Source of the DNA: Escherichia coli
Lineage (GTDB): Bacteria > Pseudomonadota > Gammaproteobacteria > Enterobacterales > Enterobacteriaceae
Reading direction: 5' to 3' (one strand)
DNA: 64,000 nucleotides
NCBI RefSeq assembly: GCF_003334335.1
Contig: NZ_QOWQ01000007.1
How positions within the stretch are numbered: position 1 is the first letter of the stretch; each line of letters opens with the position of its first letter. Position numbers: made by a program. Shown piece after piece: positions 1 to 3,000 of this stretch.

Positions 1-3000
1 GCACCGGTGGAAACCAGATCGCAAATCGCATCCGCCAGTCCGGCGCGCGGGGCGACTTCAACAGAACCGTTCAGTAAGCAGGATTTAAAAGAGATGCCTT
101 TCTGGTCGAGATATCGCTTGAGCAGGTGAGGATAAGAGGTGGCGATACGTTTACCGTTTAAGGAGAGCGGGCCGTCCCAGGCTTCATCAACCGGCGTTGC
201 CAGCGAAAGGCGACAACCGCCGAAATCCAGACGACGCAGGGTAAAGTAGCGTGGATCCTCACCCTGGGCGCGGCGGTTAAGCAGCTCTTCTTCCAGCACG
301 TTTTCGCCGATAATCCCAAGGTCTACTACGCCATCCATTACCAGACCGGGAATGTCGTCGTCACGTACGCGTAGAATATCAATCGGCATGTTTTCTGCCA
401 TCGCGATCAGGCGCTGGGTGTGAAGATTGATTTTAATACCACAGCGCGCCAGTAATTCGCGTGAGTCATCACTTAAACGGCCGGATTTCTGCATAGCTAT
501 GCGTAAACGAGAGTTGTCTGTCATTTTGTTATTCCTCTTTAAACCTGTCTGAACCGTTATCAACCGCGCAATAAAAAAGCCCCCGGAAGGTGATCTTCCG
601 GGGGCTTTCTCATGCGTTCATGCACCACTGGAAGATCTGAATGTCTTCCAGCACACATCGCCTGAAAGACTAGTCAGGATGATGGTGATGATGGTGGTGT
701 TTAAATTGAACGCGTGTCATAAAAGTCTCTGTGAATGTTTATTCAACTGATGTCTTTTAACCTAAACCACTTTCACGTTAGAAAGCAAGGGCTTTTTTAT
801 ATATTTTATGGCGATGGATTTGTTTAATGAATGAGCGGGGAAAGGAGGGGGCTAAGAGGACTGTCCTCTAAGCTGACGGCACCAAAAATAGCGAAGCCTG
901 GATTTTCGTCTCACTGACAATACCTTGATCTACAAACTAATTAATAAATAGTTAATTAACGCCCATCATTGTACAATGAACTGTACAAAAGAGGAGATTG
1001 ACATGCGTACAATTAGCTACAGCGAAGCGCGTCAGAATTTGTCGGCAACAATGATGAAAGCCGTTGAAGATCATGCCCCGATCCTTATTACTCGTCAGAA
1101 TGGAGAGGCTTGTGTTCTGATGTCACTCGAAGAATACAACTCGCTGGAAGAGACGGCTTATCTACTGCGTTCCCCCGCTAACGCCCGGAGATTGATGGAC
1201 TCAATCGATAGCCTGAAATCAGGCAAAGGAACAGAAAAGGACATTATTGAGTGAAACTAATCTGGTCTGAGGAATCATGGGATGATTATCTGTACTGGCA
1301 GGAAACAGATAAGCGAATTGTTAAAAAGATCAATGAACTTATCAAAGATACCCGCAGAACGCCATTTGAAGGTAAGGGGAAGCCAGAACCCCTGAAACAT
1401 AATTTGTCAGGTTTCTGGTCCCGACGCATTACAGAGGAGCACCGTCTGGTATACGCGGTTACCGACGATTCACTGCTCATTGCAGCATGTCGTTATCATT
1501 ATTGAACAGATTCATTCATAGAATGAATTGTCAGTTTTGATACGCTAGCGTAGCCTTATAGATCTAAGGTGTATCAGGAGATAACGGATGAAAAAGGTCG
1601 CAATTGTCGGGTTAGGGTGGTTAGGCATGCCGCTGGCGATGTCACTTTCAGCGCGAGGCTGGCAAGTCACCGGGAGTAAAACCACACAAGATGGTGTCGA
1701 AGCGGCCCGAATGAGTGGCATTGATAGCTATCTGCTTCGCATGGAGCCTGAGTTAGTTTGCGATTCTGACGATCTGGATGCCCTGATGGATGTCGATGCG
1801 CTGGTCATTACGCTTCCGGCACGTCGTAGCGGCCCCGGCGATGAGTTCTATTTACAAGCGGTACAAGAGTTAGTGGATAGCGCGCTGGCCCATCGTATTC
1901 CCCGCATTATTTTTACCAGCTCAACATCTGTCTATGGCGACGCGCAAGGCACGGTGAAAGAAACTACCCCGCGTAATCCGGTAACCAACAGTGGACGAGT
2001 ATTAGAAGAACTCGAAGACTGGCTGCACAATTTACCCGGTACTTCGGTCGATATTCTGCGTCTTGCGGGGCTGGTCGGACCGGGACGTCATCCCGGACGC
2101 TTCTTTGCCGGAAAAACCGCGCCTGATGGTGAACATGGTGTTAATTTAGTCCATTTAGAAGATGTTATTGGCGCTATCACTCTGTTGTTACAGGCACCTA
2201 AAGGCGGACACATCTATAATATATGTGCGCCAGCTCACCCTGCGCGTAATGTTTTCTATCCGCAGATGGCCCGTTTACTGGGGCTGGAGCCTCCGCAGTT
2301 CAGAAATAGTCTGGACAGCGGCAAAGGTAAGATTATTGATGGCAGTCGGATTTGTAATGAACTGGGATTTGAATACCAGTATCCCGATCCGCTGGTAATG
2401 CCGCTGGAGTAAACGATCACGCCAGCAGGACGCCGCATGCACTGCAAGGGGGCGTGTATGAAACCACTGCTGGATGTGTTGATGATCCTCGATGCCTTAG
2501 AAAAAGAAGGCAGTTTTGCGGCGGCGTCGGCCAAACTCTATAAGACGCCGTCCGCTCTGAGTTACACCGTTCACAAGCTGGAAAGCGACCTTAATATTCA
2601 ATTGCTTGATCGTAGCGGTCACCGCGCTAAATTCACCCGTACCGGAAAAATGTTATTAGAGAAAGGGCGGGAAGTTCTGCATACCGTGCGAGAACTGGAA
2701 AAGCAGGCGATCAAACTGCATGAAGGCTGGGAAAACGAGCTGGTGATTGGCGTGGACGACACGTTTCCTTTTTCTCTGCTTGCGCCACTGATTGAAGCTT
2801 TTTATCAACATCATAGCGTGACGCGCCTGAAGTTTATCAATGGCGTACTCGGTGGTTCCTGGGATGCCCTGACTCAGGGGCGAGCGGATATTATTGTTGG
2901 CGCGATGCATGAGCCACCATCTTCCAGTGAGTTTGGTTTTTCACGGTTGGGCGATCTGGAACAAGTCTTTGCGGTCGCGCCTCATCATCCGTTAGCCCTG

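Follow-up and report, generated by a model that had tools for sequence, protein, structure and literature searches.

The window analysed here is a 64,000-nt stretch of an Escherichia coli genome (contig NZ_QOWQ01000007.1 of assembly GCF_003334335.1), in which a preliminary description made from the raw sequence had placed a canonical toxin-antitoxin (TA) pair, yefM-yoeB, at 970-1505. Two small, adjacent and co-oriented genes are indeed found there: yefM, the antitoxin gene, comes first and its TGA stop codon overlaps the GTG start codon of yoeB in the tetranucleotide GTGA. Identical DNA is annotated by RefSeq as yefM and yoeB, between hisL and yeeZ. This layout is that of a type II TA operon, and the gene order and the 4-nt overlap had both been described correctly. 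The span itself needs one amendment. Its end and the coordinates of the operator hexamers hold, whereas the regulatory region starts further upstream, at the -35 box, and also takes in the whole of the L palindrome. The overlap suggests, in our opinion, that translation of the two genes is coupled. All coordinates are collected in Table 1.

Table 1. Coordinates of the yefM-yoeB operon and its control elements in the window, with the basis of each assignment.
Feature	Position	Strand	Basis and remarks
Variable segment with operon	859..1510	+	breakpoints ~858/859 and ~1510/1511, from alignment with BL21 and O157:H7
-35 hexamer TAGTTA of pyy promoter	949..954	+	equals published pyy -35 'TaGttA' (PMC7730913); weak consensus match
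L (long) operator palindrome TCATTGTACAATGA	966..979	.	perfect 14-bp palindrome; covers -10; predicted primary YefM site
-10 hexamer TACAAT	972..977	+	equals published 'TAcAAT' (PMC7730913)
S (short) operator repeat TGTACA	982..987	.	predicted secondary YefM/YefM-YoeB site, around transcription start
Transcription start G	983	+	published coordinates mapped onto the window
Shine-Dalgarno GAGGAG	991..996	+	6 nt before yefM ATG
yefM, Phd/YefM-family antitoxin and autorepressor, 83 aa	1003..1254	+	identity to 2a6q_A, NF008499, PF02604, RefSeq
GTGA overlap, yoeB GTG / yefM TGA	1251..1254	+	read from sequence
yoeB, RelE-superfamily toxin, predicted to cleave mRNA as a ribosome-dependent endoribonuclease, 84 aa, GTG start	1251..1505	+	2a6q_E, TIGR02116, PF06769

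Identity of the yefM-yoeB locus

The yefM reading frame opens with the ATG at 1003 and runs for 83 codons to the TGA at 1252-1254. Its product is 100% identical to residues 4-86 of 2a6q_A ('Antitoxin yefM'; E = 1.8e-49), matches the NF008499 equivalog over profile positions 1-83 of 83 (186.6 bits, cut-off 121) and belongs to Pfam PF02604 (7e-28). The yoeB product is 100% identical to 2a6q_E ('Toxin yoeB') over positions 1-84 (E = 1.2e-56), and its sequence is common to eight PDB entries (2a6q, 2a6r, 2a6s, 4v8x, 6ny6, 6otr, 6oxa and 6oxi). It also matches the TIGR02116 equivalog (132.8 bits, cut-off 51.8) and Pfam PF06769 (3.1e-43), each over positions 1-80 of 80. The preliminary description had called the system known and intact, and had proposed to align it with characterised YefM and YoeB and to look for a loss of the YoeB catalytic residues. 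The full-length identity of both proteins to the 2A6Q chains supports this view, and Glu46, Arg59, Glu63, Arg65, His83 and the C-terminal Tyr84 are all present at the positions expected for YoeB. According to the structure of YoeB on the 70S ribosome, the general base is Glu46 and the general acid is His83; transition-state stabilisation and orientation fall to Arg65 and Tyr84, and Arg59 and Glu63 are also named as active-site residues (PMC3814384). From the identity to the protein tested in PMC3814384 and PMC4554461 we infer that this YoeB would cleave mRNA in the A site and would be toxic without its antitoxin. Lability of YefM relative to the toxin, by way of Lon, was shown for the identical protein (PMC4554461).

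The control region is equally well matched. The paired TGTACA hexamers that had been noted at the promoter (970-975 and 982-987) are those of the footprinted L/S operator. The first copy is the core of the palindrome TCATTGTACAATGA at 966-979, which is base-for-base identical to the DNase-footprinted operator of Kedzierska, Lian and Hayes (PMC1802561). These authors found that YefM and YefM-YoeB footprint TCATTGTACAATGA plus a short repeat that has the same TGTACA core and lies 12 bp off; in the window the two copies are likewise 12 bp apart, both start-to-start and centre-to-centre. In the published pyy promoter, the -10 box TAcAAT and the -35 box TaGttA are separated by a 17-bp spacer, and the +1 base is G (PMC7730913). 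Together, L, S, their 12-bp spacing, the -10 and -35 hexamers, the spacer and the +1 G of the window match the two reports exactly. The transcription start was assigned to G983: relative to the mapped start, PMC1802561 numbers the yefM ATG +21 and an alternative ATG -7, which correspond to 1003 and 976, respectively, and PMC7730913 gives G as the +1 base. The window thus contains the autoregulatory operator that is typical of type II TA loci, namely L/S TGTACA repeats 12 bp apart that overlap the promoter, and binding of YefM to it is predicted from this identity.

Compared with K-12 MG1655, the region 900-1530 carries only five substitutions, all silent: one non-coding change at position 963 (C in the window, T in K-12), which falls within the promoter spacer directly 5' to L, and four synonymous ones. 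The -35 and -10 boxes, L, S, the Shine-Dalgarno sequence and the two start codons are unchanged, and the proteins, the spacer, the +1, the GTGA overlap and the hisL-yeeZ site are the same as well. Codon 78 of yefM specifies the K-12 residue in the window. In the near-identical genome LR-29-1, this codon (at ~1235 in its locus) reads ATA for ACA, giving T78I in the C-terminal tail and hence a different protein accession, WP_053276570.1.

Taken together, these data identify the region 949-1505 as the complete chromosomal yefM-yoeB type II TA operon of E. coli, predicted to be functional, with a probability that we put at about 97%. The locus is YefM-YoeB of E. coli itself, beyond mere resemblance, since every feature that defines the system at the sequence level is found, and we detected no sequence evidence that contradicts the identification. 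No Rfam family reached threshold within 970-1505, and the open reading frames (ORFs) antisense to the module, on the - strand, are 40-64 aa long. Our analysis covered protein identity, operator, promoter elements, gene overlap, catalytic residues, genomic context and population distribution; DNA binding, repression, Lon dependence and cleavage chemistry are drawn from the literature on identical sequences. Two observations bear on its role. Heat-activated YoeB causes neither growth arrest nor a global shut-off of translation (PMC4554461), and ~22% of E. coli genomes are without the operon, which indicates that it is dispensable. The operon, its structure, operator, promoter and catalytic mechanism have all been published already, and there is nothing new in this copy.

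Alleles at the hisL-yeeZ site and related cassettes

The distribution of the operon was surveyed in 5426 complete E. coli genomes. The hisL-yeeZ region was found in 5417 of them, with at least 80% of the 1-kb query covered in 4208. The segment 859-1510, which holds the operon, is present in 4218 genomes at 4225 places, all of them chromosomal and at most two per genome. BL21 and O157:H7 lack both yefM and yoeB. Alignment shows a replacement in these strains, not a simple deletion: the 652 bp of 859-1510 stand against ~210 bp (BL21 locus 1662-1870), and this alternative segment holds an inverted pair of repeats resembling repetitive extragenic palindromes (REP), GCCGGATGCGGCGTGAATGCCTTATCTGGTCTACA ... 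TGTAGGACTGATAAGCGGAGCACATCAGGC, in the manner of a bacterial interspersed mosaic element (BIME). The REP/BIME allele was recovered at 80% coverage or more in 1197 genomes, and another ~740 genomes gave weaker, partial matches, consistent with a dispersed repeat family. As the two mutually exclusive alleles (4212 + 1197) account for 5409 of the 5426 genomes, the site is essentially biallelic. The right breakpoint lies 5 nt past the yoeB stop codon, directly ahead of an AT-rich hairpin (1511-1527) that is present in both alleles.

Related cassettes are carried by large plasmids of Salmonella, Citrobacter and E. marmotae, with 82-86% DNA identity over promoter, operator and both genes and with the same GTGA overlap. 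The plasmid that we examined is the conjugative IncFII plasmid pIncFII.1 of Salmonella Milwaukee, whose positions 3001-3569 align with window positions 939-1506. Its L palindrome is perfectly conserved and its S repeat has one mismatch (TGAACA). The homology begins ~10 bp upstream of the -35 box and ends at the yoeB stop codon; the plasmid flanks, type III secretion chaperone genes and a hypothetical gene, are unrelated to those of the chromosomal E. coli copy. This pattern agrees with the survey in PMC1802561. All of this accords with the usual picture of type II TA loci, in which they are compact cassettes exchanged horizontally, and leaves the identification unaffected.

These findings raise the question of whether the cassette is chiefly a selfish addiction module that spreads horizontally and is kept at hisL-yeeZ because its loss is penalised, and not for its use to the host in the stress response, the molecular mechanism being unchanged. 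We regard this as possible, though clearly the less likely view. It would account for the presence or absence of the operon at a biallelic site, with ~1200 genomes including BL21 and O157:H7 carrying the REP/BIME segment instead, for homology to plasmid-borne cassettes limited to ~939-1506, and for a GC content of 43.9% in the segment as against 51.8% in yeeZ, 53.8% in the hisG part and 47.1% in the whole window. Neither protein matched an anti-phage model of PADLOC, a result that is in line with a selfish module and leaves a reading as a defence system unsupported. However, an exclusively chromosomal location in the complete E. coli genomes, with so few places per genome, is not what a mobile module would predict, and the flanks contain no transposase, integrase or terminal repeats. 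Activation that depends on Lon and heat has been reported (PMC4554461), and a bladder-colonisation defect of a CFT073 mutant is cited in a review (PMC4963858), which also speak against a purely selfish function.

A more specific proposal, which we consider unlikely, is that the cassette came in from a plasmid copy, or was lost, through a REP/BIME-associated replacement, or that its presence alters expression of yeeZ by read-through or of the his operon through the divergent promoter. If true, the two alleles would differ in phenotype independently of toxin activity. On the yeeZ side (1588-2412, +), a consensus scan detected no intrinsic terminator between yoeB and yeeZ (1506-1587). The hairpin at 1511-1527 is followed by GTCAGTTTTGA, and its folding is only marginally better than that of shuffled sequences (z = -1.82; 7/200 shuffles). 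Transcription from the TA promoter may continue into yeeZ. On the other side, the preliminary description had named the his operon leader as a neighbour, and it was found as such: the His leader RNA (Rfam RF00514, 131.6 bits) lies at 571-694 on the - strand and hisL, which encodes MTRVQFKHHHHHHHPD, at 670-720 (-), both ~280 bp from the operon and transcribed divergently. The 5' part of hisG occupies 1-524, and an AT-rich stretch precedes TAGTTA on the + strand. We take the his promoter hexamers to be TTGCTT (-35, 788-783) and TAGGTT (764-759) on the - strand. Since the left breakpoint of the variable segment falls ~70 bp upstream of this presumed -35 box, the his promoter would be common to both alleles.

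Promoter, operator and translation start

A consensus promoter and terminator scan of 500-1700 returned no + strand promoter and no + strand terminator. The promoter threshold was 9 of 12 consensus positions and the yefM-yoeB promoter matches 8 of 12, its -35 box contributing 3 of 6; as the published -35 is itself weak, the miss was not counted against the promoter. Taken at face value, a poor -35 box missed by the scan, together with the substitution at 963 inside the promoter spacer, could point to a decayed or silenced relic, whose genes look intact and are nonfunctional or unexpressed in this strain. We consider this highly improbable. A weak -35 box is wild type for the K-12 promoter, which is active (PMC7730913), every control element and both start codons are those of K-12, the two proteins have the very sequences of the YefM and YoeB characterised by biochemistry and structure determination, and the coding differences from K-12 are all synonymous, as purifying selection predicts.

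The same promoter organisation is known from Axe-Txe of the Enterococcus faecium plasmid pRUM, a homologous Phd/YefM-YoeB/Txe pair that also has paired TGTACA cores 12 bp apart and the -10 box TACAAT (PMC7730913). The two systems differ in where the repeats lie. In the Axe-Txe promoter pat, L is in the spacer and S partly over the -10 box, whereas in yefM-yoeB L covers the entire -10 and S surrounds the start site, an arrangement described as classic steric exclusion of RNA polymerase (PMC7730913). Moreover, pat has the -35 box TTGCTT, is 20-40 times stronger than the yefM-yoeB promoter and is less tightly repressed (PMC7730913).

The number of TGTACA hexamers in the 64 kb, 13 observed for 13.3 expected, shows no enrichment, so that it is the pairing at 12 bp that constitutes the signal; the pair is the only palindromic hexamer repeated at this offset in the whole window. 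With a count at expectation and a divergent his operon close by, the hexamers might be due to chance or might regulate the his promoter instead of yefM-yoeB, an idea to which we give almost no credence: such a pair occurs only once, its sequence is that of the footprinted operator (PMC1802561), L is kept on a Salmonella plasmid that has no his operon, the hexamers lie ~180 bp from the presumed his promoter hexamers (759-788), and the segment that carries them is missing from strains with a normal his operon.

Other motifs of this kind were seen. A near-copy of an operator half-site, CGTACAAT, is present at 1006-1013 in yefM codons 2-4; it matches TGTACA at 5 of 6 positions and its centre is 24 bp (2 x 12) from S. 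Since the plasmid homologue does not share it, it is probably a chance occurrence. CGTACA at 1006-1011, within yefM codons 2-3, was considered as a third operator site and set aside, the Salmonella plasmid homologue having CGCACA. A perfect TTGACA stands at 998-1003 and overlaps the first base of the yefM ATG. Another TGTACA pair, 24 bp apart, was observed at 23540-23569 inside the annotated rpe; no palindromic extension was noted and the pair is presumably due to chance.

The longest ORF of the locus starts at the ATG at 976 (976-1254, 92 aa), and this start was once proposed for yefM, according to PMC1802561; S would then be coding sequence and not operator. The 92-aa ORF was rejected, and we attach next to no weight to this start: primer extension placed the transcription start 7 nt downstream, which leaves this ATG at -7, and overexpression of yefM with the upstream ATG still gives a product that starts at +21 (PMC1802561), while no Shine-Dalgarno sequence precedes 976 and GAGGAG stands 6 nt before 1003, and the 83 positions of NF008499 are matched end to end by YefM 1-83. 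The annotated yefM start should therefore read 1003, not 976.

Other features of the window and proposed function

Beyond the operon and its flanks, the window differs from K-12 by additional phosphotransferase system (PTS) genes at 16-25 kb. Two PTS sugar-utilisation clusters (16092-25350) are situated between ldtA and a tRNA-Asn gene and comprise IIA/IIB/IIC components, DeoR and sugar-binding regulators, rpe, hxlB, a short-chain dehydrogenase/reductase (SDR) and an RpiB-like isomerase. Only 81 of the 5426 genomes cover at least 80% of window positions 1-25000, which marks the PTS region as a strain-variable island. Judging from the near-identical genome, its annotation includes no prophage genes; K-12 presumably carries CP4-44 at the corresponding place. 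A truncated gene of the EutP/PduV microcompartment family (11786-12082), a pseudogene in the LR-29-1 annotation, lies beside cobUST and looks like a remnant of a pdu/cob region.

Five tRNA sites were found (25412-25484, 27820-27892, 29641-29713, 44030-44102 and 45094-45180): four matches with equal scores, which are tRNA-Asn in the near-identical genome, and one tRNA-Ser. The tRNA-Asn genes border the variable regions. The small RNAs STnc240 (3433-3507, directly upstream of yoeI/plaP), RseX (54779-54868, -) and DsrA (63271-63357) scored above the Rfam gathering scores. Finally, a 7983-nt gene for a protein with immunoglobulin-like (Ig-like) domains spans about 35731-43713 (-), with coordinates transferred from the LR-29-1 annotation, and adjoins a family-9 glycosyltransferase gene. 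We take this large gene to encode a giant adhesin resembling YeeJ/invasin.

As to the function of the operon, the following mechanism is proposed on the strength of work with identical sequences. The weak sigma-70 promoter, with its TAGTTA and TACAAT boxes and start at G983, would give a single bicistronic mRNA, from which yefM would be translated by means of GAGGAG and yoeB from the GTG that overlaps the yefM stop codon. A YefM dimer would hold one YoeB with its active site inactive, as in the complex crystallised as 2A6Q, where the YefM:YoeB stoichiometry is reportedly 2:1. YefM, and more tightly the YefM-YoeB complex, would bind L and then S; occupation of the two sites would cover the -10 box and the start, exclude RNA polymerase and so bring about self-repression. 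In published work repression is due primarily to YefM, with YoeB as co-repressor, and L is occupied before S (PMC1802561).

Degradation of YefM by Lon, for instance upon Lon overproduction or at 42 deg C, would then free YoeB; loss of YefM is Lon-dependent, and at 42 deg C YoeB becomes active (PMC4554461). Free YoeB would enter the ribosomal A site and cut the mRNA between the second and third bases of the codon there, with Glu46 as general base, His83 as general acid and Arg65 and Tyr84 stabilising the transition state. Cleavage after the second A-site nucleotide by Glu46/His83 acid-base catalysis has been described for YoeB on the ribosome (PMC3814384).

YoeB shares its toxin fold family and ribosome-dependent mRNA cleavage with the toxins of RelBE and RelJK modules. 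RelJ and RelK of M. tuberculosis (Rv3357-Rv3358) are recognisable homologues of YefM and YoeB (E = 4e-15 and 8e-25, respectively). The antitoxin RelB of E. coli is a ribbon-helix-helix protein and not a member of the Phd/YefM family. YoeB has a full Glu/His acid-base pair of the ribonuclease T1/Sa type and a weak ribosome-independent activity that is absent from RelE (PMC3814384).

The locus can be used as a positive control, being a real, intact and well-characterised module whose recognition, with correct coordinates, needed the raw sequence alone. What chromosomal yefM-yoeB does for the cell is debated, and a function of YoeB in quality control has been proposed (PMC4554461). The strain falls among the ~78% of E. 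coli that possess the module, and the polymorphism between the yefM-yoeB cassette and the BIME segment could be used to mark lineages, or to ask, as an experiment of nature, whether a chromosomal TA system is dispensable.

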